From NCBI GenBank assembly GCA_964582465.1, contig CAZOQX010000002.1:7379-71378 (forward strand): a stretch of 64,000 nucleotides of DNA, read 5' to 3'. Shown one piece after another: positions 1,305 to 50,519 of the stretch. The position numbers and the translations under genes were made by a program. Every line of letters starts with the position of its first letter. Within the stretch, counting starts at the first letter, position 1. This DNA is from an uncultured Candidatus Saccharibacteria bacterium (GTDB taxonomy: Bacteria > Patescibacteriota > Saccharimonadia > UBA4664 > CAZOQX01). The notes under the pieces are model-generated. The model was not told the origin of the DNA. It saw only the letters and a list, made by a program, of their open reading frames with translations, and did not search any database.

Positions 1305-1387
1305 AACGAAGACCTCCGGCTAGTAACCATTGGTCCTCGCCGGAGGCGGTTTGCGGTGCTCGTCGTCGGGGTACTGAGGATCGGGCC

Positions 1388-1774
1388 TCATTTGGTGGCT
1401 CGGATCGTGTCGCGGCCCTTGCGGTTGGGCTTCTTCGACTTGCCACCACTCTTCTGCTTGGCTTCCGCCGCTACGCGGCGGGCCTTGCGCTCACGTGAAG
1501 AAAGAGTGTTTGGCGAGTGGGGCGGCGCACCGCGGGCGGTGATGGAAGCGGCTGGCCTTGGTTCGGCGTCCGATGGGCGATCGTCATAGCGCGACGGGGC
1601 ATGCCCATAGTCGCGACCGAACTGGCGATCGTGGTCCTTCTGAAGGATCTCGCCGATCCAGGCGCCGTCTGTCGACTTTCCTTCTGACTTCTGGGTTAAT
1701 TCTGCCTGGAGTCGCTTGGTGTCGAACTGGCTGGTGCCGATTTGCCTCTTCTTGCCGGGTGAGGTTCTGCTCAC
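1388..1774 (-). CDS. small Lys/Arg-rich basic protein, GC-rich foreign-looking gene (reminiscent of actinobacterial small basic proteins)
   Basis: GTG start preceded by AAGGGGG; strongly GC3-biased codons unlike neighbours; K/R-rich N and C termini. Confidence 0.45.
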   Translation of the reverse strand: MSRTSPGKKRQIGTSQFDTKRLQAELTQKSEGKSTDGAWIGEILQKDHDRQFGRDYGHAPSRYDDRPSDAEPRPAASITARGAPPHSPNTLSSRERKARRVAAEAKQKSGGKSKKPNRKGRDTIRATK

Positions 1775-1867
1775 GGTTCCCCCTTGTCGTGTCGCTTCGG
1801 CATACTATAGCACGAACATTCCCATTCGCAAGAGTGTAGTTGACTTCTCCCGCCCCCAATGTTGCAT

Positions 1868-2353
1868 TTATGATGTTTGTAGCTTGCGATACTCACGCCA
1901 GGTGAGGGCGACAATCAAGAAGTCGAAGGCGGTCAGAAAAAGTAGACCAACTCCGTGGGTAACGCCGAAGCGATAGGATTGGTACAAGATGAAGACGAAT
2001 AAGAAAACGATCATGACCGGATAGGCCCAAGTGATCTTTCGGAGTAGGGCAATGACTAGAATTATTTTGACTAAACCGTGGGCCAACAAATAGATGGCAG
2101 CAAAGGTTGGGCTTGAGGCCAAGTGTTGGGTAGAGTGGATGAGGTGACCTGCAATGAAATCACGCGGGTCCTCCGAAAGTTCATGTTGGGTTAGGGTCAC
2201 GACCGCACGATTAATCGTTTCCGGCGCAAACCATACTAGCAGGCCGCCAATTAGTTCGAGTAATCCGTCGATGCCTTTAGCGATAATGCTGTACTCGAAG
2301 GTTTTATCGAGCCAAGTTTTGGGCTGAAACCATTTATTGAGCGTAGCTGCCAT
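1868..2353 (-). CDS. DUF2127-like integral membrane protein
   Basis: Four predicted TM helices, WFAPETI-type motif; ORF track extends to 2425 (TTG) but ATG at 2353 gives typical ~160 aa length. Confidence 0.5.
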   Translation of the reverse strand: MAATLNKWFQPKTWLDKTFEYSIIAKGIDGLLELIGGLLVWFAPETINRAVVTLTQHELSEDPRDFIAGHLIHSTQHLASSPTFAAIYLLAHGLVKIILVIALLRKITWAYPVMIVFLFVFILYQSYRFGVTHGVGLLFLTAFDFLIVALTWREYRKLQTS

Positions 2354-2510
2354 ATCTTTAGTATATATCTTAGGCGGTTGGTTAGTCAGCGGCGCCAAAA
2401 AATAGTCTATGCGCCAAAATAACAATAAAGCGCAGCAATCTAATTGGGCATTTACACGAGATTAGAAGACTGATACATGTTTATAATTACAGGGTTAGTA
2501 AGGAGATTAG

Positions 2511-2924: not shown

Positions 2925-3263
2925 TTGGCCTACAACGAAGATCTGGCCAAGCGGATCCGTACGCTTACAGACGGGACTCCGGGTTTGTCCGAAAAGGGGA
3001 TGTTCGGCGGCTTGGCCTTCCTCATTAACGGCAATATGGCAGTGGCGGCAAGCGGGCAGGGAGGCATCCTAGTTCGAGTTGATCCGGCACAATCGGCGCA
3101 GCTCATTTCTACTACAGCCGCCTCGCCGATGGAGATGCGCGGGCATACTATGCCGGGGTGGTTAAGGGTCGACACAAAAAATCTGGACGGGACGGAATTA
3201 GATATGTGGGTTGAACTGGGCATTACATACGCGGCTGGCTTGGCGAAGAAGAAGGGCTATTAG
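2925..3263 (+). CDS. TfoX N-terminal domain protein
   Basis: Starts immediately after previous stop (TAA-ATG); MFGGLAFLINGNM motif typical of TfoX_N. Confidence 0.6.
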   Translation: MAYNEDLAKRIRTLTDGTPGLSEKGMFGGLAFLINGNMAVAASGQGGILVRVDPAQSAQLISTTAASPMEMRGHTMPGWLRVDTKNLDGTELDMWVELGITYAAGLAKKKGY

Positions 3264-4618: not shown

Positions 4619-4622
4619 CAAT

Positions 4623-4698
4623 TGGCGGGCCCGACCGGGATTGAACCGGCGATCTCCTCCGTGACAGGGAGGCGTGTTAACCGCTACACTACGGGCCC
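4623..4698 (-). tRNA. tRNA-Asp (GTC)
   Basis: Cloverleaf: acceptor GGGCCCG/CGGGCCC, anticodon loop CTGTCAC, T-loop GGTTCAATCC, encoded CCA. Confidence 0.85.
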
Positions 4699-4937: not shown

Positions 4938-5237
4938 ATGAAGAATGTGTATGCCGAGATCGAGGAGCTTGACTACATCGGTCGGACCGGGGGCGGGCTG
5001 GACGATCGATCGGTGTTGCTCCGCCTGCTCACGGAGCTCAAGGAGCACCCTGACAGGCGGACAGAGCTCAAGCCCGAGATCGTGCGGCGCTGCTTGGCCT
5101 TCCGACACCGCGAGTTGGGCCACCCCGGCTACTACCAGGTGGCGAAGCTCATCCGTGAGCTGCGCATTGATCTCGCCAAGGAGGCCGCAATCCGGAAGCG
5201 CCGTCGCCGCCATCTGCGTCTCGTACCGACGAGATAG
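4938..5237 (+). CDS. hypothetical protein, GC-rich foreign-looking gene
   Basis: ATG preceded by GGGGAG RBS; extreme GC3 bias; followed by imperfect hairpin 5257-5300; lies next to tRNA-Asp. Confidence 0.4.
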   Translation: MKNVYAEIEELDYIGRTGGGLDDRSVLLRLLTELKEHPDRRTELKPEIVRRCLAFRHRELGHPGYYQVAKLIRELRIDLAKEAAIRKRRRRHLRLVPTR

Positions 5238-5601: not shown

Positions 5602-5610
5602 TTTAAACTA

Positions 5611-5711: not shown

Positions 5712-5787
5712 GCCGATGTAGCTCAGCTGGTAGAGCAGTGCTTTCGTAAAGCAAAGGTCGGCGGTTCGAGCCCGCCCATCGGCTCCA
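5712..5787 (+). tRNA. tRNA-Thr (CGT)
   Basis: Acceptor GCCGATG/CATCGGC, D-loop AGCTCAGCTGGTAGAGC, anticodon loop TTCGTAA, T-loop GGTTCGAGCC, CCA encoded. Confidence 0.8.
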
Positions 5788-5788
5788 T

Positions 5789-5862
5789 GCGGGTATGGTT
5801 TAGTGGTAGAATGCAACCTTCCCAAGGTTGAGATACGGGTTCGATTCCCGTTACCCGCTCCA
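5789..5862 (+). tRNA. tRNA-Gly (CCC)
   Basis: Acceptor GCGGGTA/TACCCGC, anticodon stem CAACC/GGTTG loop TTCCCAA, T-loop GGTTCGATTCC, CCA encoded; 1 nt after tRNA-Thr. Confidence 0.8.
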
Positions 5863-5996: not shown

Positions 5997-6248
5997 ATGA
6001 AGGTCTACATCCTGGTCGAGGTGGCAGTGGGCCTGGTGCCGCAGGTCGAGGCGGAATGCCAGATGCCCAAGAGTGCCACCCGCGGCATTAGGGGGGTCAC
6101 GAAGGTCGAGCACGTCACCGGTCCCTACGACGTGATCATCCAGGCTGAGTCGGCCAATCATGACACCGTGAACACACATCTGGAAAAGCCTATCAAAGAC
6201 ATCCCCGGTGTCCGGCGTGTGATGGTTTGCCCGGTCGCCGCAGGCTGA
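5997..6248 (+). CDS. stand-alone Lrp/AsnC C-terminal (RAM) domain-like small protein, GC-rich foreign-looking gene
   Basis: 83 aa; pattern MKVYILVEV...IPGVRRV resembles AsnC-type ligand-binding domain; GGAGAGAGG RBS; GC3-saturated codons. Confidence 0.45.
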   Translation: MKVYILVEVAVGLVPQVEAECQMPKSATRGIRGVTKVEHVTGPYDVIIQAESANHDTVNTHLEKPIKDIPGVRRVMVCPVAAG

Positions 6249-6322: not shown

Positions 6323-6724
6323 ATGAAAATAATCACCCCTAAGGCTCTCCGGGGGTATTTGTCCGAAAAGATTACTAGCTTTAGTGAACAACGCTTCTGG
6401 CAGGACAAACTTTCTTTAGCCGTACTAATTGCCGCCCTCATCTTAAATGGAATCACTTTTGTAGTGCTGGCAGTTCGAGTTCATCCCGCGCAGTTCGAAG
6501 TACCAGTGCGTTATTCCAGCTTGGTCGGCTTCGATGTGCTTGGCCCGTGGTACGAAATTTACCGCATCGGACTTTTTGCCGTCGCCGTGACCGTGGTGAA
6601 CGGCTTGCTTGCTTATAAGAGCTTTGCCCGCAGCCGCATCACCAGCTTCTTTCTTCTAGTCGGCGCCTTTGTGGTGGCCTTGTTTTGTCTAATAATTGGT
6701 ACGGCGTTTACGGCCATTGTCTGA
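6323..6724 (+). CDS. small integral membrane protein (hypothetical)
   Basis: ATG at 6323 in frame with ORF 6227-6724; three to four TM helices; stop overlaps next start (ATGA). Confidence 0.45.
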   Translation: MKIITPKALRGYLSEKITSFSEQRFWQDKLSLAVLIAALILNGITFVVLAVRVHPAQFEVPVRYSSLVGFDVLGPWYEIYRIGLFAVAVTVVNGLLAYKSFARSRITSFFLLVGAFVVALFCLIIGTAFTAIV

Positions 6725-8406
6725 TGAGTGAACGCCTGAATTACTACGAGCGGCCAGGATTTAAACGCATGCTCGAAATATTCCCCGGCGCGCTAACTTG
6801 GACACTAATTATTTTGCCGATAGTTTTGAGTTTGGTGAAGCCGGTATTGGTGGCTTATTTCATCATTGCCTTTGACCTATTTTGGTTGGTGAAATCGCTC
6901 AGGCTAAGCTTTAACTTGATACGAGGTTACCGTACCATGCATCGCTATAGCCTGGTTGACTGGAATGGCCGGGTGGCTGATCTGAATGATCTGGAGCTAG
7001 CGGTCAAGCGCCGCCGCCAGGAATTAGAAAAATTGCAGCGCGAACATCCCTATGTGCAAGATTTTTGGCCGTCAAATCTGCAGAAGCGAGGGCAGCGGGT
7101 ACGCTGGCTGAATGCGCGCAAGCACCTGCAGGAGCTTGAAGAGTTGGCCGATCGGCCGCAAACAGTACTTAAGCCTGAAGACTTGTATCATGCCATTATT
7201 CTTGCCGAGTACAATGAGCCGGTGGACATCATGGATGCGACCATCGAACAAGTGCTTGCATCCGATTATGACAAGCAGAAACTGATCTTTGTGCTGGCCT
7301 ACGAGGGACGGGGAAGCGGAGAGGACAAGCAAAACGTTAAGCGCCTTATGGAGAAGCACGGTTCTAAATTTGGGCATGCTCTCTTGATTGAACATCCGGA
7401 CGGTCTTCCTGGTGAGGCCCGGGCGAAAGGCGCCAATATCACCTATGCCGCGAGAAGACTGACTGAATTTGCCAGCAAGCAGGGGATTTCTCCGGATCAT
7501 ATCATTGTAACCACACTGGACGCCGATCATCGGCCCAGTCCGCATTACTTCAGCTATGTGACTTACATGTATGCGACTGATCCCAACCGTCTGCACAAAT
7601 CCTATCAGCCTGTGCCTATGCTTTATAACAACATCTGGGATGCGGCTGCTCCGATGCGGGTGGTGGCCTCCGGTGGTTCGTTCTGGATTCTGGTGCAGTG
7701 TATGACACCGCACCTGCTGCGCAACTTTTCGGCTCACGCCCAAGGACTGCAAACCCTAATTGACACAGATTATTGGAATGTGCAGTCGATCGTGGAGGAT
7801 GGACACCAGTATTGGCGGACTTTCTTTGCCTATGATGGCGATCATCAGGTAGTGCCGATTTTTGCGCCGATTTATCAGGACGCTGTGATTGCGGCGCGGT
7901 ACGGACGCACCCTGAAGGTCCAGTATATTCAGCTGCGACGTTGGGCCTGGGGGATTTCCGATTTTGCCTATGCAACGTCTAATTCACTGAAATATCGGTC
8001 AATTTCTTGGAACAAGAAGGTGGTGGAATTGCTTCGTTTGCTGGAGGGACACATCAGCTGGGCAACGGCGCCACTACTTCTATCATTTGTGGCTTGGTTG
8101 CCGCTGCTTTTGAACCGCCGTTTTAATCAAACACTGCTTGCTCATCAGTTGCCGGTAATTGCCAGTCGGATTCTGACGCTGGCGACACTCGGGCTGGTGA
8201 CCACTGTGTTTATTAGCCTGATTTCGTTACCGCCGCGGCCACCGCGCTACCGCCGAGTGCGCTTTATTAATATGACACTCCAATGGGCTCTCTTGCCGCT
8301 AGTTACAATCGTTTTCAGTGCCTTCCCGGCTATTGATGCCCAGACGCGTCTCATGCTTGGCAAATATCTGGACTTCCGTGTGACAGAGAAGAGGCTGGTC
8401 AAGTGA
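6724..8406 (+). CDS. family 2 processive membrane glycosyltransferase (cellulose-synthase-like, QxxRW motif)
   Basis: N- and C-terminal TM segments, DAD motif (TTLDADHRP), QLRRWAWG (QxxRW) motif; start ATG 6724 overlapping upstream stop. Confidence 0.65.
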   Translation: MSERLNYYERPGFKRMLEIFPGALTWTLIILPIVLSLVKPVLVAYFIIAFDLFWLVKSLRLSFNLIRGYRTMHRYSLVDWNGRVADLNDLELAVKRRRQELEKLQREHPYVQDFWPSNLQKRGQRVRWLNARKHLQELEELADRPQTVLKPEDLYHAIILAEYNEPVDIMDATIEQVLASDYDKQKLIFVLAYEGRGSGEDKQNVKRLMEKHGSKFGHALLIEHPDGLPGEARAKGANITYAARRLTEFASKQGISPDHIIVTTLDADHRPSPHYFSYVTYMYATDPNRLHKSYQPVPMLYNNIWDAAAPMRVVASGGSFWILVQCMTPHLLRNFSAHAQGLQTLIDTDYWNVQSIVEDGHQYWRTFFAYDGDHQVVPIFAPIYQDAVIAARYGRTLKVQYIQLRRWAWGISDFAYATSNSLKYRSISWNKKVVELLRLLEGHISWATAPLLLSFVAWLPLLLNRRFNQTLLAHQLPVIASRILTLATLGLVTTVFISLISLPPRPPRYRRVRFINMTLQWALLPLVTIVFSAFPAIDAQTRLMLGKYLDFRVTEKRLVK

Positions 8407-17540: not shown

Positions 17541-18074
17541 TCAGATGCGGGCCGATACGAGGGCCAATTCTCGGCCGATGTGGAGGTTCGCTATGAACTG
17601 ATCGGCGGCTGCGCGCAACGGTTCCACCGATCGGCGCATCTCGAGTTGCAGGAAGATATTCGGCACTAGGAAGTGCGGGATGGTCTGGGCGAACCTGGGC
17701 AACTTCCCGCACAGTAGCTCTTCGATCTCCGGATTACTCTGGAAGAGTAATTCCAGTACCAGGATCAGGTGGTGGTCGGCCGGGTCGTCAGTCTCTTCGG
17801 GTTTCAGGTAGAAGAGACCTGCTTCGGCCAGGTCTTCCAGAGCGTGCAATCGGGGCAGGCTGAGCTCGCGCGGATGATTCGGCCAGCGACAGGCCATCCC
17901 AGCCTGCAAACAGAATGCAGCTAGCCCCGCGCTCAGCAAATTCACCCGAATCGAATCGGGGTAGTCGAGAGGCCACGGACCGCGATAGGCCGAGTAGCGC
18001 CAAAAATGCGTTCCACGCAACGTAACTCCTTTAGGTGCTCCAGCGGGCGCTTTTATTATGATTTGACCATCCAA
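17541..18074 (-). CDS. hypothetical protein, GC-rich foreign-looking gene
   Basis: GC3-rich codons unlike flanking genes; start uncertain (several in-frame Met). Confidence 0.35.
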   Translation of the reverse strand: MDGQIIIKAPAGAPKGVTLRGTHFWRYSAYRGPWPLDYPDSIRVNLLSAGLAAFCLQAGMACRWPNHPRELSLPRLHALEDLAEAGLFYLKPEETDDPADHHLILVLELLFQSNPEIEELLCGKLPRFAQTIPHFLVPNIFLQLEMRRSVEPLRAAADQFIANLHIGRELALVSARI

Positions 18075-18119: not shown

Positions 18120-18196
18120 GGGCAATTAGCTCAGCTGGTTAGAGCGCTGCGTTCACATCGCAGAGGTCGCTGGTTCGAATCCAGCATTGCCCACCA
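18120..18196 (+). tRNA. tRNA-Val (CAC)
   Basis: Acceptor GGGCAAT/ATTGCCC, anticodon stem CTGCG/CGCAG loop TTCACAT, T-loop GGTTCGAATCC, CCA encoded. Confidence 0.8.
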
Positions 18197-22715: not shown

Positions 22716-22720
22716 GTTCT

Positions 22721-31259: not shown

Positions 31260-31672
31260 GGTCCAGATTATTGGATAGCTGCTCGTGTCGAAAGGCGCGA
31301 GAGGAAAGTCCGGACAGCTTAGAGCGTGGTGGTTGCTAACGGCAACCGGGAGTAAATCCCGCGTCGTTTCTCTCGAGAAAACGGTGCCGGGAAGAAGCCT
31401 AGGGAAAGTGCCACAGAAACAATACCGCCTTCGTTTTCGAAGGTAAGGGTGAAAAGATAAGAGGTAAGAGCTCTTAAGTCCTTGTCGGTGACGGCAAGGA
31501 GCGGTAAACCCCACCTGCTGCAAGGAGTCGGCTACCCGAAAGGGCTGGTGCTCGCCAGGCCGGCGTTTGAACCCGCACGACCCTACTGGCAACGGTAGGG
31601 CAAGATAGATAGCTATCCATTTCGCCGTAAAAAGCGGAGGGACAGAATCCGGCTTACAGATAATCTGGACCA
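31260..31672 (+). ncRNA. rnpB: RNase P RNA, bacterial type A
   Basis: Conserved blocks GAGGAAAGTCCGGAC, ACAGAAAC, GGTAAACCCCACC, ACAGAATCCGGCTTAC; P1 formed by GGTCCAGATTAT / ATAATCTGGACC; ends +-5 nt. Confidence 0.85.
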
Positions 31673-39051: not shown

Positions 39052-39834
39052 ATGGAAGATAGTGTCGTTCAAAGCTTAGAAGAATTAGGCTTAAGCGAGA
39101 AGGAAGCCAAAGTTTATATGGCAGCTCTGGCGCTTGGGCCTTCGCCGGTACAGAAAATTGCCGATGCAGCCGGCATTAAGCGCGTCACCACTTATGTAAT
39201 TTTGGAATCGCTCACAAATTTGGGCCTCGCCAGTCAGTCCACTCGGGGGAAAAAGACTTACTTCGTGGCTGAAGATCCTATTAGCTTGCGCCGATTGGTC
39301 AAAAAGAAGGAGCAAGAACTGGATGATCAAAAGCAAAACCTGGAGAATATTCTGCCGGCCCTGACAAAACTCAAAAGTCGACCCAAGGAAGTGCCGCAAG
39401 TGCAATTTTATGATAGCGTCGAGGGTATTCGCTCCATCATGGCCTCATTTATTGAGCTCCGGAAGCAGAAAGACGTTAAGAAGCTTTACGGAATTAGTAA
39501 TTTAGATCAGCTCTACAGCTTCTTTCCCGATATGGAGGGAGGGGCAAATCCGGAGCGGATGAAGAGCGGCCTGGCCAGCGAGTTTATCTACACCTATAGC
39601 GGTGGGCCGACACTGAAGGATTCAGACAAGCAGTCGAAGCGCATTTCTAGGTTTGTGCCGCCCGACGTTTTTAGTATTAATGGGGATATTTCTATTTTGG
39701 GCGACAGTGTGGCAATCTTGGCCCTAGGCGGTCAGCGACCGGTTGGTATCACCATCAAGAGCGCCGAGATCTCCAAGGCCATGAAGGCCTTATTCGACTT
39801 GGCTTGGGAAGCCGCGGCCAAATTCAACCAGTAA
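39052..39834 (+). CDS. TrmB-family transcriptional regulator
   Basis: LGLSEKEAKVYMAALALGPSPVQKIADAAGIKRVTTYVILESL wHTH. Confidence 0.65.
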   Translation: MEDSVVQSLEELGLSEKEAKVYMAALALGPSPVQKIADAAGIKRVTTYVILESLTNLGLASQSTRGKKTYFVAEDPISLRRLVKKKEQELDDQKQNLENILPALTKLKSRPKEVPQVQFYDSVEGIRSIMASFIELRKQKDVKKLYGISNLDQLYSFFPDMEGGANPERMKSGLASEFIYTYSGGPTLKDSDKQSKRISRFVPPDVFSINGDISILGDSVAILALGGQRPVGITIKSAEISKAMKALFDLAWEAAAKFNQ

Positions 39835-39863
39835 ACCGGTTTTGCTAGTTATAATTTACACTA

Positions 39864-39893
39864 TTGACGTAAGAGGCATCGTTAGGTATACTG
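39864..39893 (+). promoter_or_regulatory. strong sigma70-like promoter (TTGACG - 17 nt - TATACT)
   Basis: Near-consensus -35 and -10 with 17-nt spacer, read directly. Confidence 0.5.
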
Positions 39894-39899
39894 AGCGCA

Positions 39900-40262
39900 C
39901 TTGTTCAGGTCACCCAGCACCTTTCTTCTGCTAGATCCCCCTGTCCACGTGCGTCTCGCGAACTTCCCCTAGAGACGATCGTTTGTATCAACCGGACTTC
40001 GCGGTGCGAATCGCGCCCCGTGCGGCCCATCGGACGCCAGGAAAGGGGGATAATGAAGAATGGTCCAGTGATCAGAACAGCGAGACCGCGTCACCGCCGG
40101 AACTGGCGATCCGGCGCATGGCGCACACGGTCTCATCGGAGTTGATGCGGGAGGGCGACCCACGGTGTTGATCGGCTACGCCGATCTGAGGGGCCGGCCG
40201 CCCCACACCACGCCCCCCGCATCTCTCCGGACCCCAACTAGCGCTTAACGGGCGCCTTTTTT
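39900..40262 (+). other. GC-rich transcribed unit of unknown nature (candidate ncRNA, or Arg-rich 30-codon micro-ORF at 40053-40145), ending in terminator
   Basis: Bounded by promoter above and GCGC-hairpin plus T6 run at 40240-40266; contains AAAGGGGGATAATG micro-ORF; composition differs sharply from flanks. Confidence 0.3.
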
Positions 40263-40270
40263 ATTTCAAA

Positions 40271-41284
40271 CTAAGCTTTACCCTGATACCACAAGGCGGC
40301 ATATTCTGGGAACACTGCGTTTATAATCATACCGGTTGAGAATTCAAAACCAGCCCGGGGTGTCTTTGGTACTGGTTCTAGCCGCAACATGAAGTGGTGG
40401 TCCAGGCCTAGCGCCGGCTCCTGTAGGTAATAGTTATAGTCGATCTGGGAGTTGTTTAACCGTGAAGTTAGATTCTTAAGTGAGGTCGCGAGGCTCGTGC
40501 GCTCCGCCAGCTGCGCATCTATCAAAGAGGCGAAGTGTCGGCGCGGGATCAGCCAGGCCTCAAAGCGTTTTTTGCTCGCAAATGGGGCAATTATTACCAA
40601 GTTTTTGTCTTCATAAATAATGCGGGCCTTATGCTGAATTTCCCAATCAATAATGTCGCAGACAGGGCAGCGGTCATGCTTCGCGTGATAATCGGCATAG
40701 GCGGCAGCTTCTTGAGCCACCGCCGGAGGAATCATCGGCAAGGCCGAAATCTGGGAGTGCAGATGCGCTCGGCTGGCCCCAGCCTTATGACCGTTGTTAC
40801 GAAAGACGCTGACGTACTTAATTCCGGGGATGGCGGCGAGTACCTTAGTCCGTTGGACGTAGCCTTCGAGTACAGCTTCGATCTGAGCTACCGGTAATTC
40901 GTTAAACTCTACATTGTGCTCCGGCGTATCTAATAAAACTTCTTGTTCACCGAAAGCGTGGGGGTTCGACAGGGTGAGAGAGGGATACTTATTCTTGACG
41001 GCGCGGACTAGCCAGCCACCCTGGCCATCAGGCAAGTCCCAAACTATCGGCTCCATCATATCCTGGCAGTCGCTCGCGTTATGGCGGTGGTCCAGGCCCG
41101 GGTCTTCTTCCTTAAAATCGCGTGGCCTTTGACCACGTTTGGCCGAAAGCAGCACGTAACGCTCTTCATAATAATCTTTGCGGATTTCGGCCTGGGCCGG
41201 TACAGGATCCGCGACGAGAGTTTCAGGCTTAAGTTTAAGCGGTTGACTGTAGGGAGACATAAACCTCACCATTAGCACTTTCAC
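40271..41284 (-). CDS. galT: galactose-1-phosphate uridylyltransferase-like (GalT, HIT superfamily)
   Basis: CPVCD zinc motif and HLHSQI (HxHxQ) active site. Confidence 0.7.
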   Translation of the reverse strand: MKVLMVRFMSPYSQPLKLKPETLVADPVPAQAEIRKDYYEERYVLLSAKRGQRPRDFKEEDPGLDHRHNASDCQDMMEPIVWDLPDGQGGWLVRAVKNKYPSLTLSNPHAFGEQEVLLDTPEHNVEFNELPVAQIEAVLEGYVQRTKVLAAIPGIKYVSVFRNNGHKAGASRAHLHSQISALPMIPPAVAQEAAAYADYHAKHDRCPVCDIIDWEIQHKARIIYEDKNLVIIAPFASKKRFEAWLIPRRHFASLIDAQLAERTSLATSLKNLTSRLNNSQIDYNYYLQEPALGLDHHFMLRLEPVPKTPRAGFEFSTGMIINAVFPEYAALWYQGKA

Positions 41285-42531: not shown

Positions 42532-43554
42532 ATGCGTCGAGCCCGTTTTAGGACCATAGTTCTGGCCACTTTGGTGCTGTTTGTTGTACTTTTTACCGCA
42601 ACTTGGCTTGGTTTACACAAACTAGAGACTAATAATCGCGCCAAACCGGCCACACTTGGAGTTAGTTTCTCGGATAAATATGCCCGGGAGCTGGGCCTGG
42701 ACCCTCATCAGACGTTTTTGGCCTTGCTCGGCGACTTGAAGATTAAGCATTTGCGCCTGATGAGCTACTGGGACGAGGTCGAGCCGTCCCAAGACCATTT
42801 TGACTATAAGGAGCTAGATTGGCAGCTGGCACAAGCGGCCAAATATCACGCGACCGTGACTCTCGCCATTGGTTTACGCCAGCCGCGCTACCCGGAGTGC
42901 CATTACCCCGGGTGGGCCACCAACTTAAGTTATGATAGTCAGCTTAAAGCCTTGTACACTTACCTGGCCCAAACAGTCAATCGTTATAAAGATAACCACA
43001 CTATCACTAGTTGGCAGCTCGAAAATGAAGCTTTGAACCGAGTGTTTGGTCAGTGCCATGACTTTAACTACGATCGCCTGCAAGCCGAGTACCAACTGGT
43101 AAAACAGATTGATACGGGCCGGCCGGTGATCACCAATTTAAGTAACGAGTGGGGATTGCCGCTGCGCGCGCCGCTGGGTGACCAGATTGGCTTTTCGATG
43201 TACCGGGTGGCTTACATTAAGCCCGTGTGGCACGCCTACTTTTACTACTGGGCACCGGCTTGGGGGCATACGCTGCGTGCTAGAGTGATCCAACGGCTGT
43301 GGCATAAGCCGATTATGATCCATGAGCTGCAGGCCGAGCCTTGGGGCCCGGCGCCAACGGGTCAATTATCGCTGGCGGAGCAGAATAAGAGTATGAATGC
43401 GGCCAAAATTCAGGCAGCCGTAAATTATGCCAAGTCGACTGGGCTTAGTCCGATTTACCTCTGGGGCGGGGAGTGGTGGTACTGGCGCTATACTAAGTTT
43501 CACGACGTCAAACTGTGGCAAACTGTGCAACAGATTTATAAAACTAGCTCTTAA
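42532..43554 (+). CDS. membrane-anchored glycoside hydrolase, clan GH-A TIM barrel (GH5/GH26-like)
   Basis: N-terminal TM; SWQLENEA (catalytic NE) and later E-containing strand typical of clan GH-A. Confidence 0.5.
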   Translation: MRRARFRTIVLATLVLFVVLFTATWLGLHKLETNNRAKPATLGVSFSDKYARELGLDPHQTFLALLGDLKIKHLRLMSYWDEVEPSQDHFDYKELDWQLAQAAKYHATVTLAIGLRQPRYPECHYPGWATNLSYDSQLKALYTYLAQTVNRYKDNHTITSWQLENEALNRVFGQCHDFNYDRLQAEYQLVKQIDTGRPVITNLSNEWGLPLRAPLGDQIGFSMYRVAYIKPVWHAYFYYWAPAWGHTLRARVIQRLWHKPIMIHELQAEPWGPAPTGQLSLAEQNKSMNAAKIQAAVNYAKSTGLSPIYLWGGEWWYWRYTKFHDVKLWQTVQQIYKTSS

Positions 43555-43612
43555 AATGCGAGGAGCCCTCCACGACGAATCGTGAAGGGCTCTCTCGGAC
43601 AGACTTGGTGTA

Positions 43613-44397
43613 TCAGGGCTCGTGGTGGTAGATGCCCTCGGGTGGCATGCCCGTCGGGAAGGGCTGATGCCCGCGGAAGATCTGCGGCTTCATCAGCTCC
43701 CGGTACCGCGCGATGCCGTCGGCCGTTTCCGGGATCCGAACACGACTCGGGTCCAGGTTGTACCGTTCGTCCTTCTTCCAGTCGTGAGCCGAGGCGTACC
43801 ACTGCTGGTACCACGGCCGCACGAACATGATCAGGAAGAGCATGCAGGCGATCGTCCAGCCCTGGCGGGCCAGGTTGGCTTCGACTGCCGCCACCACGGC
43901 GTGTCCGGTGACGGTGCCATGCTCGAGCCCCGTCACCAGTCCGCTCAGCGCTGCAACCACCGTGGACATGGTCCAGGCGACGTAGTAGCTGAGCGGCAAG
44001 TGGAGAAAGCTAGGCTCCTGAGCGAACCACCACACCCGGTAGGGGAAGTCGCGCAGCCGGTACGCCGGGTTCAGGACGAACCAGGCGAAGTCCCAGGCTG
44101 AGGCGAACATCAGGTAGATCGCGAGATCCTTCAGCACCTCCGACCAGCTCCAGCGCCCCGATGAAACCATGGGGTAGAGGAGCCAGACCAGGGGGGTCGC
44201 GAAGAGGAACGCGTGGTAGCCCGTGAGGGGCTTCCCCGTGAACCTGATCCACACCCTCGCTGCCACCGAGCTGCGGCGGTAGAAGGTGGGGAATCGCTCC
44301 GCCCACCCGTAGGGTCCTTCGGCCTCGATTTCGAAGCCGGCGAACAGGAACTCGAGCAGGAACAGCCACAGTGCCGCGTACAGCGGGTGCATGTCCA
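43613..44397 (-). CDS. polytopic membrane protein, GC-rich foreign-looking gene
   Basis: ATG 44397 with GGAGG RBS 8 nt upstream; 6-7 TM helices, aromatic-rich; GC3-saturated. Confidence 0.5.
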
Positions 44398-44644
44398 TTT
44401 CGTACACCTCCAAGTTGTCCGAAGGTTCAGGAATGCCGGATTGGCACTCGAAGGCGTTAATATAGCATAATTCTTCCAAAACGTCAATGCTTAACAGGTT
44501 GAAGTTTAGACATTCCTCTGCTAAGATATATTTCTTAGCGACGAACCAAACCAGGCTATAGCCGTTTGGGTCGTCGAGAGGAGAAACTGAGCGCAGGCGA
44601 CAAGTAAATTAGTTTTACTTCAGCCGGAAGCTCAGTTTGGACGA

Positions 44645-45017
44645 GGGGCTGACATAGCTTCGACGTGAGTACATTTACAGACTATTTAGCAGGTCGGCTG
44701 GGGGCGTTACCTCCAATCTCAACAACCGAGAACTTTGTAGCTAAGCTGAAGAGCCTTTTCCAGGTTCCTCAAGCCGCTTTTGCCCTAGCTTAAGTCTAGA
44801 GCCATCGGCACCTGACACCAGATAGGGGTCTGCCGGTGCCAATCATCTGGTTGCCTTGCTTCTGCTTGCTCAAGCGCTGTAAGTAAGATATAGAGCTGGA
44901 TCACCGCTTGTTTGTGAGTTTTGCGGACGGTGATTGAGAGGATCAAATCTCACTAAACCTGTAGAATGATAGTTTGTTAGCTTGCGGACCGGGGTGCGAT
45001 TCCCCGCAGCTCCACCA
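44645..45017 (+). ncRNA. ssrA: tmRNA (SsrA)
   Basis: 5' GGGGCTGA..TTCGACG and 3' GGACCGGGGTGCGATTCCCCGCAGCTCCACCA match tmRNA tRNA-like domain; candidate tag ORF ending ...AAFALA-TAA at 44791-44793. Confidence 0.85.
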
Positions 45018-45142
45018 AAAGGGAATCTGACGAAATTCAGGTTCTTTTTTGATTCAAAGAAACGATCCGCCCCATTCTACAATTGACTTTTCATTACTCT
45101 TATGCTAGAATAACTCTCAACGACCTCGGAAAGGGGGCAGAA

Positions 45143-45601
45143 ATGCCGGGTTTGTGGTTCTTCTTCAAGGCCAGGTGGGCCCTGCGCAAGCAGCTTCGCG
45201 GTCTGAAGGTTCGTCGTTTCAACGGCGAATTGACGATCCGCGGGGTCACGCTACACCAGGTGGGTTCCCCCAAGAGCGTGCATCGCGCCCTCGGCAGCTC
45301 GGACGGCTGTGTTGGTCCTCAGTACACGGGTTACCCGTCCGGCATCGTCACCAGCTACTACAGCGAGGACTACGACGGGCAGTCGGTGACGGATGCGACC
45401 TACGCCCTCGTCGTCGACCAGATCGGTCGTGCCGGGTTCATGCGGCATTACGGCGTGGCTGACACGGAGCTGGTCTCCTGCGTGTACATCGCAGCGGGCT
45501 GTGACATCCGTCGACTGGCCCTACTCCTCGGGAAGTACTCCCGGGCGGGACACATCAACTTCGACCGCTACCGGCGGCCGGCGGAGATGCTCTCCGCCTG
45601 A
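45143..45601 (+). CDS. hypothetical protein, GC-rich foreign-looking gene
   Basis: ATG 45143 after AAGGGGG; GC3-saturated codons. Confidence 0.45.
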   Translation: MPGLWFFFKARWALRKQLRGLKVRRFNGELTIRGVTLHQVGSPKSVHRALGSSDGCVGPQYTGYPSGIVTSYYSEDYDGQSVTDATYALVVDQIGRAGFMRHYGVADTELVSCVYIAAGCDIRRLALLLGKYSRAGHINFDRYRRPAEMLSA

Positions 45602-45782
45602 TCAATTGCCCGCTGAAGCATTCGTTTTCAAGAACGTCTGCCTCGGCGGGCGTTCTGTTTTTTACAACAGTTTTACCAGATATAACAAATCAAGCGTTTT
45701 AACGAAAATTGACACAATTATCACGTTTTTGTTGTAAAGGTTAACCTTTATCGCTTGTGGCAGAAAGGGGATCATAGCATGC

Positions 45783-45968
45783 ATGTGCACAGAAATTTAT
45801 GAAGAAGCATGCGAGGATTGTCAGGGCCAGCTAAGGCTTATCTTCCGCCACAAAACAGAAGATCTGGGCTGTAGCGCCATTTACGTCTGTATAAGCTGTA
45901 ATCAGAACTATTCTATTATTATTCCGCCAGTTTGCTCCGCCAGCTTGCCACATCTATCAACCGCTTAA
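45783..45968 (+). CDS. Cys-rich 61-aa peptide (CxxC...CxxC), hypothetical
   Basis: AAAGGGGA RBS 11 nt upstream; 8 Cys; native-like AT-rich composition. Confidence 0.35.
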   Translation: MCTEIYEEACEDCQGQLRLIFRHKTEDLGCSAIYVCISCNQNYSIIIPPVCSASLPHLSTA

Positions 45969-46013
45969 GACTGTTACAAATCAAAAAGAGGTGCCCTGGG
46001 CAAGGGAACCCTC

Positions 46014-46523
46014 TTACAGCAGCCCGGTCACCTTCAACCAGGCTTGGTTCTGATCGGCGAGCAACTGGGTCATGTTTCGGAAGATTGATTCCAGCACAAG
46101 CCCCATTGTCTCACCGAGGTGATCCCACTGCGCGAGGCCAACGACAGCTCGTATGGCAGCCAGCTGCTGAAGGGCGAAGTGGGACGAAGCCGGGACCAGT
46201 GTGCCGCGACGGGTAATGACCACCTCTGATCGATTTGACAGCCAGTGTGGGCGAGTCGACCAGCGCTTGATAACTGATTCGAAGAATGCCTGGCGATGCT
46301 CATCATCGAAGCCAATTAAGTCGAGGCTCGAGAGAGTACAGCCCAATTTCGTGCTGCCGTCAGCGAACACGAAGTAGGCAGCCTCGGGCTCGGCCCGGTG
46401 CAATGATGCCAGGATCTCGTACCCGTATTCCAGAGGCGACTTGGCGTCACCCCGGATCACCAGCCGGCCAGCTTCGAGTAAGGCAGCTAGCCGGCCTGGA
46501 TTCATCGGAGAACCTCTTGCCAT
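46014..46523 (-). CDS. hypothetical protein, GC-rich foreign-looking gene
   Basis: ATG 46523 with GGAGG RBS; GC3-rich. Confidence 0.45.
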   Translation of the reverse strand: MARGSPMNPGRLAALLEAGRLVIRGDAKSPLEYGYEILASLHRAEPEAAYFVFADGSTKLGCTLSSLDLIGFDDEHRQAFFESVIKRWSTRPHWLSNRSEVVITRRGTLVPASSHFALQQLAAIRAVVGLAQWDHLGETMGLVLESIFRNMTQLLADQNQAWLKVTGLL

Positions 46524-46720
46524 TTCAATCCTCCAATCGTCTAAGGCCCCACTTACACTTCGGCCATTGACTATGGACCACTTGCATCCCTTGCCCAGGG
46601 TGATTTGATGATACGCCCTCCAGGAAGGGGCAGCAAGCATTTATTGACCGTAAGCGGTTTTTATGGTATAAACAGCAAGACGTTTGCCAACCCGGCAAAC
46701 CCGGACCCTGAGGAGGGTTC

Positions 46721-47407
46721 ATGCTGGAGTACAAGGTCCGTCTGTACCTCAACCCGTGGGGCGAGACAATCACCAAGGACGAGCTCCCGCGGATCCTGAA
46801 GCACGTCGCGGAGACGCGGGCCATGCACGTCGGCAGGCAGTTCGATCTCGGGCACTACAAGCGCAACAGCCTCGGACTCGCCATCCTGGACCCGACGGCC
46901 CCGATCTGGCGCCCAAGCACGCACACCCTGCTTGCGACCATCGCCATCGGCCCCGAAGGTGAGCGCTTTCTGCCGAACGCCGTGGCGAAGGCCGTGGAGC
47001 ACCGGGACAAGGGCCAGCTCGCCGGCTACGGTGCCTACGTGGACTTGACGCAGACGGCCGACGGGGACTTCACCTATGGCTTCTCCTGCCGGGTCGACGA
47101 CACCATCGGCGGGGCCAGCGGCCAGACCGAGATCCAGGATGCCTGCGAGGCGGGCCATGCCCTGGTGACGTTCAACTACCTGGTGCGGCAGGCGCGTGGC
47201 CTGTGGCTGGCGAGTCGCCAGGGACACCCTCGATGGTTCAGCGACGCCGATCAGCCCGCTGCGAAGTACGTCTCGATGACGCAGGCCGGCGCGCTCACGA
47301 TCGTGACCTCCGACTCGTCGCAGGACAAGTCTGACGACGAGGACATCGAGCCGACGCGCAGCTCCACCGACGCCTACGACATCGGGCAAGGCACTGCCGG
47401 GCCCTAG
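46721..47407 (+). CDS. hypothetical protein, GC-rich foreign-looking gene
   Basis: GGAGGG RBS; GC3-saturated; followed by hairpin terminator ~47420-47460. Confidence 0.5.
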   Translation: MLEYKVRLYLNPWGETITKDELPRILKHVAETRAMHVGRQFDLGHYKRNSLGLAILDPTAPIWRPSTHTLLATIAIGPEGERFLPNAVAKAVEHRDKGQLAGYGAYVDLTQTADGDFTYGFSCRVDDTIGGASGQTEIQDACEAGHALVTFNYLVRQARGLWLASRQGHPRWFSDADQPAAKYVSMTQAGALTIVTSDSSQDKSDDEDIEPTRSSTDAYDIGQGTAGP

Positions 47408-47526
47408 CGGCTCGGGCAACACATCACAGGGCGGGTGGCTTCTCATCGGAGAGGCTGCCCGCCCTGGCTCTTTTCAAGGATAATTTAGTTGACAAAATAA
47501 TGCTTATGTATTACGGTATTAAAGCT

Positions 47527-47625
47527 ATGACTAACGTAGTTACAACTAAATTCGTTACGGTAGGCCGAGTGCAGTATCTGCGCGCGGGTTCTTTCCGTAA
47601 CCAGGAGGCCCTAGTGCCGAGTTAA
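47527..47625 (+). CDS. candidate 32-codon leader peptide upstream of ABC exporter
   Basis: Short ORF between TTGACA-containing promoter region and intrinsic terminator; internal AGGAGG-N5-GTG mini-ORF. Confidence 0.3.
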   Translation: MTNVVTTKFVTVGRVQYLRAGSFRNQEALVPS

Positions 47626-47656
47626 CAAAAAGAGTTTGTTGGGGAACTTTTTATAG

Positions 47657-47682
47657 CTCGGCGCGAAACGCCGGCTTTTTTG
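47657..47682 (+). terminator. intrinsic terminator / candidate attenuator in exporter leader
   Basis: CGGCG-CGAAA-CGCCGG hairpin plus T6. Confidence 0.55.
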
Positions 47683-47739
47683 TTGTAAAAAGTTCTTTGA
47701 CAATCTCTCTATTCGCCATCTAGCAGAAAGGGGAAGGCA

Positions 47740-49527
47740 GTGAAGTTCGCAACTGTCAGACGGATGTGGCAGCTTTTGCGGGACGACCCCCTCAACGTAG
47801 AGCAGGTAACACGCCTGAAGCGAGTGGCACTTCGCACGCTTGGTTGGCTAATGCTAACCGAGCTAATGATCGTGCTTGCGATCTACCCGCTCAAGTACTT
47901 CTTCGATGCCATCGCCAAGCCCAACCAACGCTTCTTCGGCCTGAGCCAGGTGCCGTTCATGCTGGTAATCGGCGCCATGTCGCTTGCTACCTACCTGGCC
48001 ACGTCGCTCGCTAACTTCAAAAACGAGATCGGCCGCAATGAAGGGTCCTGGCTGTTCTACGTCATGGTGAACGATTTCGGCAACCGTAAACAGTTGTCGC
48101 TCGGAGCCGATTGGCACACCGAAAACTCCACGGGCGATAAGGAGTCGGTGTTGTCGAAGAACCACAAGAAAGTCGACAACATGGTGGACTGGCTCATCTA
48201 CTTCATCGCGCCCTTAAGCTTCAAACTGGTCTTTGTGACTGTGGCACTCGCGGTCATTAACTGGCAATTTGGTCTGCTCACCTTGGTGACAGAGCTCGCC
48301 TTCTTCGCGGTAATTCGCCGCAACGAGCGGGTGATTTCGCCTTTGCGCAAGGAGCATCGGCGTTTCACTAAGCAAATTGAGCGGGAGGATTCGGAGCTTG
48401 CCGGGTCTGCTACCACTATTAAGGAGCAGGGTATTGAAGACAAGCTGGCTGACGACCATCGCTCGCTGGGCCGACTATTCCTGGAAACAGAGGGCGGTCG
48501 CTACAAGCGTTTCCGTACGCTCATCTGGTATCAGGATCAAATCCTGGACCTTTCACGCCTGGCCATCCTGGCGCTGTCGTACTTGAACTTTCGGCAGGGG
48601 CTATCGATTGGCAGTGTTGTGCTCGCGAACTCCTGGCTAGCTTGGTTGTTCAGCGATCTGTGGCGCTTCTCGGAGTTTCAGAACATTCTAAATCAGGGGG
48701 TCGAAGCACTAGGCGAACTAGTGGAGCTATTTGAAACCGAGCCGACCATTCAGACGCCGGCTCGCCCGCAGTGGCCGCCGGCTGTGCAGGGTCGGATTGA
48801 GCTGCGGCAGGTTTCGTTCGAGTACCCGCGTGGTCAGATCGCCCTCACAGACATTGACCTCACCGTCGATCCGGGAATGACGGTGGCTCTGGTCGGCCCG
48901 TCGGGTGGCGGCAAGACGACCTTGGCGCGGCTGGTGATGCACCAGTACGACCCCTCGGCTGGTGAAATCTTAGTGGACGGCGTGAATCTGCGCGACATCG
49001 ACGACAAGCGCTACCGCTCGGAATTACTCGGTGTGGTGGCGCAAGATCCAGGTCTTTTTAACCGCTCAGTGCGGGAAAATATCCGGATCGCAAAGCCCGG
49101 TGCGAGCGACGATGAGGTCTTGGGGGCCGCTCGTCAAGCGGCGGCGGAGGTCTTCATTCAATCCTTGCCTCAGGGCTTTGACACTCTGGTGGGCGAGGGT
49201 GGCGTGAAGCTTTCCGGTGGGCAGCGTCAGCGCATTGCCATGGCCCGGGCCTTTTTGCGTCGGCCGGCTATCCTGATCCTGGATGAGCCCACCAGCTCAC
49301 TGGATGCAGTGAATCAGCTGCTGATTAAGCAAACGATTACGCGGCTGGCCGCCAGTCGGAGCTCGACTATCCTGATCATCGCGCATCGTTTCAGCACCAT
49401 CGAGATGGCTGATCTGGTAGTGGTGCTGGAAGATGGACGCATTTCCGAGATGGGCACCCATGCTGAACTGGCGCGTCGGAATGGACTGTACATGAGACTG
49501 CGGCAGCTGGAGGGGCTGCTGGATTAA
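47740..49527 (+). CDS. ABC exporter, fused permease + ATPase (type I exporter fold)
   Basis: GTG start after AAAGGGGAAGG; 5-6 TM helices; Walker A GPSGGGKTT, signature LSGGQRQRIAMARA, Walker B ILILDEPTSSLD. Confidence 0.85.
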   Translation: MKFATVRRMWQLLRDDPLNVEQVTRLKRVALRTLGWLMLTELMIVLAIYPLKYFFDAIAKPNQRFFGLSQVPFMLVIGAMSLATYLATSLANFKNEIGRNEGSWLFYVMVNDFGNRKQLSLGADWHTENSTGDKESVLSKNHKKVDNMVDWLIYFIAPLSFKLVFVTVALAVINWQFGLLTLVTELAFFAVIRRNERVISPLRKEHRRFTKQIEREDSELAGSATTIKEQGIEDKLADDHRSLGRLFLETEGGRYKRFRTLIWYQDQILDLSRLAILALSYLNFRQGLSIGSVVLANSWLAWLFSDLWRFSEFQNILNQGVEALGELVELFETEPTIQTPARPQWPPAVQGRIELRQVSFEYPRGQIALTDIDLTVDPGMTVALVGPSGGGKTTLARLVMHQYDPSAGEILVDGVNLRDIDDKRYRSELLGVVAQDPGLFNRSVRENIRIAKPGASDDEVLGAARQAAAEVFIQSLPQGFDTLVGEGGVKLSGGQRQRIAMARAFLRRPAILILDEPTSSLDAVNQLLIKQTITRLAASRSSTILIIAHRFSTIEMADLVVVLEDGRISEMGTHAELARRNGLYMRLRQLEGLLD

Positions 49528-49652
49528 ATCCTGTGGTAATAAACTACGGGAGAGAGCCCTGCGTTTTAAGCGCGGGGCTCTTTTCTATTGACTAGGCTGA
49601 CTCAAAACACTATATTTTGGTCACTCGTTGACATCTGTTAGGGGGTGGGGAA

Positions 49653-50015
49653 TTGGTTCCGCGAATTGCCGCCGCTGCCTTAGCCGTCGCAGTAGCATGG
49701 GCCATGATTCTCCTGGTGGCCCAGGTCAATCAAGGTGAGGCAGAGCTGGCTGCTCTAGTCTTCTTCTCGCTGCCGTGCGGCCTGTGGGGATATTTCGTGC
49801 CGGCGGATTTGGAAAGCGCCTTCCTTTCCGGCGCCCTGACGCTGTCAGGGATTATCCTGCTGGTTGTGGCTATCTCGGGCGAAGTGAGCTGGCGAGGGAT
49901 GCGACTGGCAGGGCAGATGTTCATGGTGGGTGGCATTTCCGTGGGCCTGGCCTGTATTACCAAGCACCGTCTCCTGCGTGCACAGCAACTTTGGAGGGAG
50001 TCGAAAACACGATGA
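49653..50015 (+). CDS. small membrane protein (3-4 TM), GC-rich
   Basis: TTG 49653 (or ATG 49704); stop overlaps next start (ATGA). Confidence 0.4.
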   Translation: MVPRIAAAALAVAVAWAMILLVAQVNQGEAELAALVFFSLPCGLWGYFVPADLESAFLSGALTLSGIILLVVAISGEVSWRGMRLAGQMFMVGGISVGLACITKHRLLRAQQLWRESKTR

Positions 50016-50419
50016 ACGCCTACCGGTTGTGGTTGTTCTTGGCAGCACTTGGCCTGATCGGCGCCGTGATCCTGGTGTTCCACCCCTGGAGCAAGAGTCA
50101 GCACAAGTTCGCGCTGTCATTCCAGGAAGTGGTTCGGGAACACCTGGAGAAACGTGGGCTTTCCGACGACAGCATCGAGCGCTGGCTGGATTATCCGAAT
50201 GCGCAACTGCAAGGTCGGACACCCCGCCAGGTGCTTCAAGACGGGGACGGTCCACTTGTGCTGGATCTGGCCGACAACTGTCCGGAGGGTGTGCGCTTTC
50301 CTCACTTCGGCCACTCTCATCACATCCGGCTGGACACGGTGGGAAACCTGCTTCCTCTTAGCTCTCCGGACTGCAATCTCTCCGGCTGGGAGCTGCTGCG
50401 ATCGAGCAGAGGCAGGTGA
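50012..50419 (+). CDS. signal-anchored protein with DUF2384-like (Xre/MbcA/ParS antitoxin C-terminal) domain
   Basis: N-terminal TM; SIERWLDYPNAQLQGRTPRQVLQDGDGPLVLDL resembles DUF2384 consensus. Confidence 0.4.
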   Translation: MNAYRLWLFLAALGLIGAVILVFHPWSKSQHKFALSFQEVVREHLEKRGLSDDSIERWLDYPNAQLQGRTPRQVLQDGDGPLVLDLADNCPEGVRFPHFGHSHHIRLDTVGNLLPLSSPDCNLSGWELLRSSRGR

Positions 50420-50519
50420 GCGAAATTAGACTGGGCGGGGCAAAAGAAGCTCCGCCCAGGAGGGCCTCGAGGTAACTCGGGGCCGCCGCTGTTTTAAAAG
50501 GATTAATTGATTATAATCT

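Follow-up and report, generated by a model that had tools for sequence, protein, structure and literature searches.

Third-position GC saturation in small cassettes of a Saccharibacteria genome: evidence for a bias possibly maintained within the lineage

Compositional islands in bacterial genomes are usually read as recent imports that are fading toward the composition of the recipient. We analyzed a 64-kb stretch of contig CAZOQX010000002.1 from an uncultured Candidatus Saccharibacteria bacterium (hereafter the window), in which short GC-rich segments, called islets here and numbered i1 to i10 along the window, lie among genes of ordinary composition; the GC content of the window as a whole is 52.2%. 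One islet protein family, that of i9, keeps near-saturated GC content at third codon positions (GC3) in numerous Saccharibacteria genomes whose composition is otherwise ordinary, and this bias is kept while synonymous sites turn over completely and the cassette, from promoter to terminator, moves between loci. The reading we favor, to which we give about an even chance, is that the islets are accessory ‘moron-like’ cassettes whose ancestry is ultimately high-GC and which now move within a Saccharibacteria pool, and that their GC3 is maintained rather than being a mark of recent transfer.

Genes were taken from lists of open reading frames (ORFs), with frames corrected wherever the antisense strand of a GC-rich gene gave the longest ORF, and with ORFs overlying RNA genes dropped. 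In 60 background ORFs, GC content is 0.580 at first codon positions (GC1), 0.391 at second positions (GC2) and 0.574±0.050 at third positions, with GC3 ranging from 0.46 to 0.68. Calculated ORF by ORF, as the original prediction had proposed, GC3 is not uniform: five ORFs are strong outliers far beyond the background maximum (GC3 0.79–0.90, z 4.4–6.5). These are i2 (99 amino acids (aa); 4938..5237, + strand; GC3 0.82, z 4.8), i3 (83 aa; 5997..6248, +; GC3 0.79, z 4.4), i6 (261 aa; 43613..44398, −; GC3 0.89, z 6.3), i7 (152 aa; 45143-45601, +; GC3 0.83) and i9 (228 aa; 46721-47407, +; GC3 0.90, z 6.5). Their pooled codons are heavily skewed (ATC 95%, AAG 97%, CAG 96%, TAC 95%, TTC 94%, no TTA), against near-even use in the background; AAG, CAG and GAG stand at 80–97%, and GC3 exceeds GC1, which exceeds GC2, with all three raised over background. 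This pattern looks like that of GC mutation pressure.

The remaining segments depart less from the background. GC3 is mildly raised in i1 (1388-1774, −; 0.72), i4 (17541-18020, −; 0.72), i8 (46014-46523, −; 0.69) and i10 (49653-50419; about 0.66), and likewise in a gene outside the original list, the ABC exporter at 47740-49527 (0.71). In 300-bp windows, GC peaks of 0.60–0.69 coincide with nearly all segments listed in the original prediction; further peaks at 23325-23639 and 38100-38600 fall within native genes. That prediction had counted at least ten GC3-saturated islets, each with one or two small ORFs. Saturation holds for the five strong ORFs, the others being mild (0.66–0.72) or, in one case, RNA-like, and the ORF count holds for every islet but the segment at 39900-40260, which has no ORF longer than 62 aa. 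No homology links the various GC3-rich genes, whether in the window or in related loci, so they represent unrelated families.

The distribution of the i9 family argues for residence in the lineage. Its relatives form 39 clusters among 5.8 billion proteins, and the sole organism names attached to them are Candidatus Saccharibacteria. A scan of one genome per species (185,579 species) returned only two i9 loci, both in Saccharibacteria metagenome-assembled genomes (MAGs), and a metagenome scan yielded six further loci; no viral contig carried the family, nor did any of the 50,697 phage records searched. The best matches of i9, expected by the original prediction to lie in Actinobacteria, are found only in the same lineage, an outcome named beforehand as contrary to that expectation.

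DNA neighborhoods were obtained for 11 i9 loci (the window, L027, L002/L003, L004/L008, L006/L013, L014, L015, L016, L017, L018 and L009). All 11 lie on contigs of 50–56% GC, with housekeeping genes in the style of the candidate phyla radiation (CPR) wherever the flank is long enough, and in all 11 the i9 homolog has a GC3 of 0.79–0.90, compared with a median of roughly 0.40–0.69 for neighboring genes. The homologs occupy at least eight different neighborhoods, beside tmRNA, TsaD, S20, DprA or NrdR or inside a mobile element, and numerous unrelated samples have islets of this kind inside long contigs (up to 338 kb). The copy in a mobile element (L006/L013) is accompanied by a serine recombinase, a relaxase-like protein and a type IV coupling protein. 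Four consecutive small genes there (L006 10001-12586, equivalent to L013 6001-8583) have a GC3 of 0.76–0.82, whereas the element’s own genes have 0.44–0.54; the locus is GC3-rich cargo on a mobile backbone of ordinary composition. At three loci, small stand-alone RNA polymerase alpha C-terminal domain proteins of 121–135 aa (L002 10717-11124, L003 2026-2412, L006 15612-15977) adjoin the i9 homolog or lie less than 5 kb from it; no counterpart was found in the window.

The i9 copies are well diverged from one another. One near-identical pair apart, they share 43–74% protein identity. At four-fold sites of conserved codons, identity is 0.33–0.59, close to the 0.32–0.45 expected for unrelated sequences of equal composition, while GC content at these sites (GC4) is 0.73–0.95 per copy; synonymous turnover is thus essentially complete, with the bias kept. 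Under neutral amelioration, foreign genes drift to the composition of the recipient roughly as fast as synonymous sites turn over. Once four-fold sites are randomized, the excess GC3 should largely be gone, provided that the copies diverged within mid-GC genomes. In the syntenic pair L009/L018, the i9 copy is more diverged than its syntenic neighbors and nearer saturation than they are, and the non-syntenic copy of L017 is closer.

The ends of the i9 cassette tell a similar story. A promoter region, TTGAC..(A)CGTAAG..TTTTAT..TAT, is common to the copies of the window, L027 and L002 despite their different neighborhoods. A subclade comprising L004, L006/L014, L015, L017, L018 and, in part, L009 shares an extended −10 element, TGTATTAT, and a leader motif, TCGATCCTTCCC, whose reverse complement, GGAAGGATCGAA, lies just past the stop codon and is followed by two conserved 3′ hairpins, kept across different neighborhoods. 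Compensatory changes affect 7 of the 27 pairs of these hairpins, and several pairs are G-U, a form available on the mRNA strand only. Pairing between the 5′ and 3′ untranslated regions (UTRs) exceeds that of shuffled sequences in L006 (z −3.0) and L018 (z −3.7). Together, the motif pair and the hairpins suggest either pairing of the 5′ and 3′ ends of the mRNA or a recombination site of the cassette. Flanks bearing the motifs include L004 9960-10715, L006 9960-10760, L014, L015, L017 and L018. Because AT-rich ends have been inherited along with the coding sequence, the i9 copies appear to descend from one cassette with control regions in the style of Saccharibacteria; judged from their sequences, they were not imported one by one from high-GC genomes, to which AT-rich flanks of this kind would be foreign.

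In the window itself, the i6 unit (43540-44460, −) also has complementary 5′ and 3′ UTRs (duplex −32.9 kcal/mol, z −2.3, p=0.013), resembling the end-pairing of the i9 subclade in other genomes. As a general trait of islets such pairing was rejected, since only i6 and the i9 subclade elsewhere reach significance; the other islets of the window do not, and the motif TCGATCC is not enriched in the window.

Each islet is a self-contained unit made up of a sigma-70-type promoter, a strong ribosome-binding site (RBS), one small ORF (once a candidate structured RNA), a terminator and AT-rich flanks. The four best promoter matches of a scan (10/12) lie exactly upstream of islet 5, i6 (44487-44459, −; TTGACG-17-TATATT), i7 (45083-45111; TTGACT-17-TAGAAT) and i10 (49588-49616, +), and the scan places terminators just past islet 5, i7 and i9. 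The i7 unit (45083..45656, +) has an AAGGGGG RBS and ends in a terminator at 45631-45656; the i9 unit (46644..47466, +) combines a promoter at 46644-46672 (TTGACC-17-TATAAA) with a GAGGAGG RBS and a terminator at 47427-47466. An RBS of GGAGG or AAGGGGG type is present at all islet units, as the original prediction had noted. GC content drops to 0.27–0.46 within about 60 nt beyond the units, so the GC-rich tract corresponds to the transcribed unit and most closely to its coding part.

The strong islets are also associated with RNA genes, an adjacency that the original prediction had reported and that is confirmed for tRNA-Asp, tRNA-Thr/Gly, tRNA-Val(CAC) and tmRNA. Of the five strong ORFs, four have an RNA gene as direct neighbor, compared with 14 of 71 genes overall (hypergeometric p=0.0045). 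Strong islets i6 and i7 lie on either side of the tmRNA gene (44645..45017, +; RF00023, 105.6 bits); i2 is situated between a directly adjoining tRNA-Asp(GTC) gene (4623..4698, −) and a tRNA-Thr(CGT)–tRNA-Gly(CCC) pair (5712..5862, +), with i3 on the far side of that pair; and the weak islet i4 adjoins tRNA-Val(CAC) (18120-18196). Several islets lie 5′ of the RNA gene. The ORFs neighboring the islets are housekeeping genes. With orphan or rare genes, positions beside tRNA and tmRNA genes and variable neighborhoods in relatives, the islets fit the earlier description of accessory, horizontally mobile DNA.

Beyond the Saccharibacteria, relatives of the islet proteins are remote, and their named relatives are Candidatus Saccharibacteria MAGs only. 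Distant i9 relatives, 33–42% identical to the Saccharibacteria copies and 40% to that of the window, occur on two non-CPR contigs: L020 (64% GC), where the homolog has a GC3 of 0.80 vs. 0.75–0.78 for neighboring sugar-metabolism genes, and L019 (57% GC). A tblastn search of plasmids with i9 gave 32–34% matches in megaplasmids of Streptantibioticus cattleyicolor and Streptomyces. The best non-self match of i6 is 42% identical; its homologs (37–42%) are found in glycosyltransferase/polysaccharide-deacetylase operons of genomes with 68–72% GC, where their GC3 equals that of their neighbors, and a copy on contig L010, judged CPR-like by gene content only, has a GC3 of 0.77 vs. about 0.55. For i7, no relative but itself was found among the 5.8 billion proteins.

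Among the islet proteins searched, none has a close homolog in Actinobacteria, plasmids or phages: identity to anything other than themselves or Saccharibacteria is 32–42% at best, and the best actinobacterial matches stand at 32–37.5%. A plasmid origin was rejected, the only matches (32–37.5%) lying on replicons of Streptomycetaceae, Nonomuraea and Burkholderiaceae, in records without annotation at the match. On these comparisons, an ultimately high-GC ancestry of the i9 and i6 families is plausible, and their links to high-GC genomes appear ancient rather than recent. The high-GC donor of the original prediction survives as an ancestor, with homologs at 32–42% identity native in bacteria of 57–72% GC and on Streptomycetaceae megaplasmids, but not, for i9, as the source of a recent import. 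Repeated acquisition from an actinobacterial host is not borne out for the proteins searched, since close homologs are lacking in Actinobacteria, plasmids and phages alike and the i9 relatives all lie on Saccharibacteria-like contigs.

If cassettes are resident in the lineage, they would relocate as whole units, plausibly through natural transformation, with conserved tRNA and tmRNA genes perhaps acting as one-sided homology anchors for integration. Such a route would fit the RNA-gene association, the absence of recombinases and the natural competence reported for Saccharibacteria (PMC10633639, PMC10187176). A force acting on the coding sequence would then hold GC3 high, whether selection for mRNA stability, codon properties such as dependence on particular tRNAs, or GC-biased repair at recombination-prone cassettes; the divergence of i9 in L009/L018, with a closer copy at a non-syntenic locus, bears on the last of these.

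One competing explanation is that each islet was imported separately and recently from a high-GC donor, likely the actinobacterial host, and has had no time to decay. The codon usage is indeed typical of high-GC bacteria, with GC1 and GC2 raised too, and would match any high-GC donor; the genes, orphan or rarely found, sit next to tRNA and tmRNA genes; high-GC genomes, Streptomycetaceae among them, carry distant homologs whose composition is native there; and Saccharibacteria have been described as naturally competent epibionts of Actinobacteria (PMC10633639). Set against this are the want, in spite of the very dense sampling of Actinobacteria, of any homolog closer than 32–42% on contigs other than Saccharibacteria-like ones, and of any at all in phages or, for i9, in viral contigs; the mid-GC setting of i9 in 11 of 11 neighborhoods, with shared AT-rich promoters and UTRs that would not be expected from a high-GC donor; and GC-rich tracts that end at the edges of transcription units, with no GC-rich donor flank in any locus. 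As the four-fold sites of i9 are randomized, at least eight independent imports would be needed, from an unseen, equally diverse donor clade with the same AT-rich promoters, which is the less parsimonious account given how heavily Actinobacteria have been sampled. We consider recent import unlikely, though it retains a real share of the probability.

More doubtful is the idea that the cassettes form a codon-defined class of epibiont genes, whose unusual coding composition would have a function of its own. This could take three forms: the mRNAs may be built for stability, being GC-rich and, in i6 and one i9 subclade, able to pair at their ends; translation may be gated by tRNAs for G-ending codons, genes for Thr-CGT, Gly-CCC and Val-CAC tRNAs lying beside three islets; or the genes may be matched to a high-GC host in which they act or are expressed, one copy being carried on an element that also encodes a relaxase and a type IV coupling protein. 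Any of the three would account for a GC3 of 0.8–0.9 persisting through full synonymous turnover against a background of 0.4–0.7. Ordinary translational selection, with very highly expressed genes using optimal C-ending codons, seems very improbable. Near-consensus promoters, strong ribosome-binding sites and the preference for C in two-fold pyrimidine boxes (ATC, TAC, TTC, 94–95%) would agree with it; however, AAG, CAG and GAG at 80–97%, together with the shift in GC1 and GC2, point to compositional pressure instead of tRNA matching, the islet genes are accessory orphans, and highly expressed genes are not GC3-rich in related genomes (S20 0.43, S15 0.55, L21 0.51, GroES 0.63); in the window itself no ribosomal-protein gene was identified. 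A chimera of assembly or binning, joining high-GC reads to a mid-GC genome, might be suspected from sharp composition changes in a metagenome-assembled contig, but is close to refuted. An independent public assembly made with another assembler (Logan, run SRR9179560) is 100% identical over 44999-48713, reproducing the four junctions of tmRNA, i7, i8, i9 and the ABC gene and answering for that part the call of the original prediction for support across islet boundaries; islets of the same kind recur in long contigs from unrelated samples; and their boundaries fall at promoters and terminators, not at arbitrary points.

Several observations weigh against maintained, lineage-resident cassettes, the reading that we nevertheless favor. 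The argument rests on one family, as only i9 and, weakly, i6 can be traced, and a genomic neighborhood is available for no more than about 11 of the 31 close clusters of i9. For i2, i3 and i7 the reading is an extrapolation, and their recent import from unsampled high-GC donors is possible. The pair L009/L018 is a weak test of amelioration, its background GC3 being about 0.68. There is no sign of how the cassettes move: no flanking direct repeats, att repeats or target duplications were found at the islets, and no integrase, recombinase or transposase domain in the islet and flanking ORFs scanned with Pfam, which make up part of the ORFs of the window. Copies of tmRNA or tRNA ends were likewise not found nearby at up to 3–4 mismatches, and the tmRNA 3′ end has no second copy in the window. 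Finally, neither codon use nor folding points to a maintaining force. The AAG/CAG/GAG preference and raised GC1 and GC2 resemble the effect of GC mutation pressure more than that of translational selection. Islet coding sequences have predicted folding energies of −0.37 to −0.43 kcal/mol/nt, vs. −0.27 to −0.31 for the background, but fold no better than synonymous-codon shuffles (z −0.5 to +1.0), and selected mRNA structure inside them was rejected for this reason.

The islet products are diverse. The weak islet i1 (1388..1774, −) encodes a basic, low-complexity protein of 128 aa with a GC2 of 0.57, and has a promoter-like site, an AAGGGGG RBS and a terminator of its own; neither i1 nor i2 has a Pfam match. 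The i3 product is a stand-alone Lrp/AsnC ligand-binding domain protein (PF01037, E 4.5e-7), that of i6 a multi-pass membrane protein, and that of i7 an orphan. Weak islets i4 (17541..18020, −) and i8 (46014..46523, −) encode 159 aa and 169 aa, i8 being divergent from i9. In i10, which is not saturated, a 120-aa membrane protein (49653-50015, +) is followed by a 135-aa ORF (50012-50419, +) with a weak Pfam match to an Xre/ParS antitoxin C-terminal domain. None of the ten islet proteins matches PHROG or PADLOC families, and NCBIfam gives two weak, sub-threshold matches only. A phage origin was rejected on the absence of PHROG families, of matches in the 50,697 phage records and, for the i9 family, of viral contigs, and a defense-system origin on the absence of PADLOC matches.

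Islet 5 (39864..40262, +) is of another kind. Located between a TrmB-type regulator and a GalT-like gene, with a promoter at 39864-39892 (10/12) and a terminator at 40241-40255, it spans about 365 nt of 63% GC and lacks both a sizable ORF and three-base codon periodicity, so its GC richness is not a GC3 effect. Its predicted fold is far more stable than those of shuffled sequences (z −5.57; 0/100 shuffles as stable), and Rfam has no match for 39800-40350, nor for 1200-1950. Islet 5 is probably a structured non-coding RNA, not a gene, according to this folding prediction.

Between the islets lie smaller features. A 61-aa ORF between i7 and i8 (45783-45968, +) carries four cysteines in zinc-ribbon-like spacing; its GC3 of 0.46 is native in composition, and it has no Pfam match. 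A short AT-rich unit between i9 and the ABC gene (47470-47680, +), with a TTGACA-type promoter-like site and a terminator at 47658-47674, holds only an ORF of about 30 codons, and may encode a small RNA or a micro-protein. The ABC gene itself (47740..49527, +) encodes a fused exporter, permease plus ATPase, with Pfam ABC domains. Its best relative is 51% identical and the next about 40%, and as a tracer of the donor the exporter was rejected.

The window can reasonably be assigned to a Saccharibacteria-type genome from its gene order and protein similarity, in agreement with the lineage guessed in the original prediction. Six of its genes, namely ThrRS (19031-20863) and those at 22682-23335, 23325-23639, 23627-24496, 27784-28605 and 28605-29189, are colinear with a contig of a Candidatus Saccharimonadales MAG at 34–58% protein identity, and the relatives of the islet genes point to the same lineage by name. 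The Rfam matches in the window include the tmRNA, which covers the full model length and was missed by ARAGORN, and RNase P RNA (31263-31672). A protein of 543–573 aa with no Pfam match is a highly conserved lineage protein: the copies of two Saccharimonadales MAGs (L009 10367-11998, L018 3913-5544), which directly adjoin the i9 homolog, are 98% identical, and that of the window (6685-8406, +) is 43% identical. In keeping with reports of natural competence in Saccharibacteria, the window encodes a TfoX N-terminal domain protein (2925-3263, +); this family has been linked to the regulation of competence.

Should the maintained-bias reading prove true, GC3 outliers in CPR genomes would be unreliable evidence of transfer from host to epibiont, and the i9 family would expose a force on coding-sequence composition in ultra-small epibionts, be it mRNA selection or biased repair at mobile cassettes, that could be tested in genetically tractable Saccharibacteria. 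The islets also mark ‘dark-matter’ genes that look well expressed, along with one candidate structured RNA, for study.

Among known systems, phage morons, described in lambdoid phages as independent transcription units inserted between phage genes, offer a close parallel: each is a single gene of accessory or unknown function with its own promoter and factor-independent terminator, off-composition and placed between unrelated genes. In contrast to morons, the islets reside among housekeeping genes of a bacterial chromosome and match no PHROG family, phage record or viral contig, and their compositional shift is toward GC and conserved across homologs. Genomic islands at tRNA and tmRNA genes share the atypical composition, accessory content, RNA-gene location and variable presence or neighborhood in relatives; the islets differ in having neither integrase nor att repeats, in lying in several cases 5′ of the RNA gene, and in being single genes of 0.4–0.9 kb.

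The islets likewise bear the donor-like signature from which the amelioration model starts, with GC3 > GC1 > GC2 and all three shifted up. In i9, however, this signature is undecayed despite randomized four-fold sites and a background GC3 of 0.40–0.69, which contradicts the neutral expectation if the divergence occurred inside Saccharibacteria. Integron cassettes, too, are mobile units with a single ORF, and behind each lies a conserved imperfect inverted repeat, comparable to the two 3′ hairpins of the i9 subclade. In contrast, the islet units have their own promoters and are dispersed in both orientations, no integron integrase was found, inspection by eye, without a formal attC model, revealed no GTTRRRY/RYYYAAC core sites, and the G-U pairs of the i9 hairpins suggest structure at the level of RNA rather than DNA.

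For i9 alone, the protein offers a further comparison. Its predicted fold (mean pLDDT 85.6) has as its top six Foldseek matches only haem-binding proteins of the DUF336/GlcG/PduO-C/HbpS type (probability 0.98–1.0, E 0.007–0.04; query TM 0.34–0.37, target TM 0.50–0.56, sequence identity 13–19%), and a G-x-S-G...D motif region is shared as well. Compared with these proteins, i9 has about 60 additional residues, a further strand and helix at the N terminus, and a disordered tail. It matches no Pfam or NCBIfam family, and a profile search against PDB sequences gave chance-level hits only; with structural scores this modest, i9 is best taken as possibly resembling the DUF336/GlcG/HbpS fold, not as a member of that family. 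A literature search returned nothing on GC3 or codon-usage islands in Saccharibacteria or Patescibacteria. The closest concepts are phage morons and tRNA-associated islands; the islets differ in that GC3 saturation is conserved within lineage-resident cassettes.

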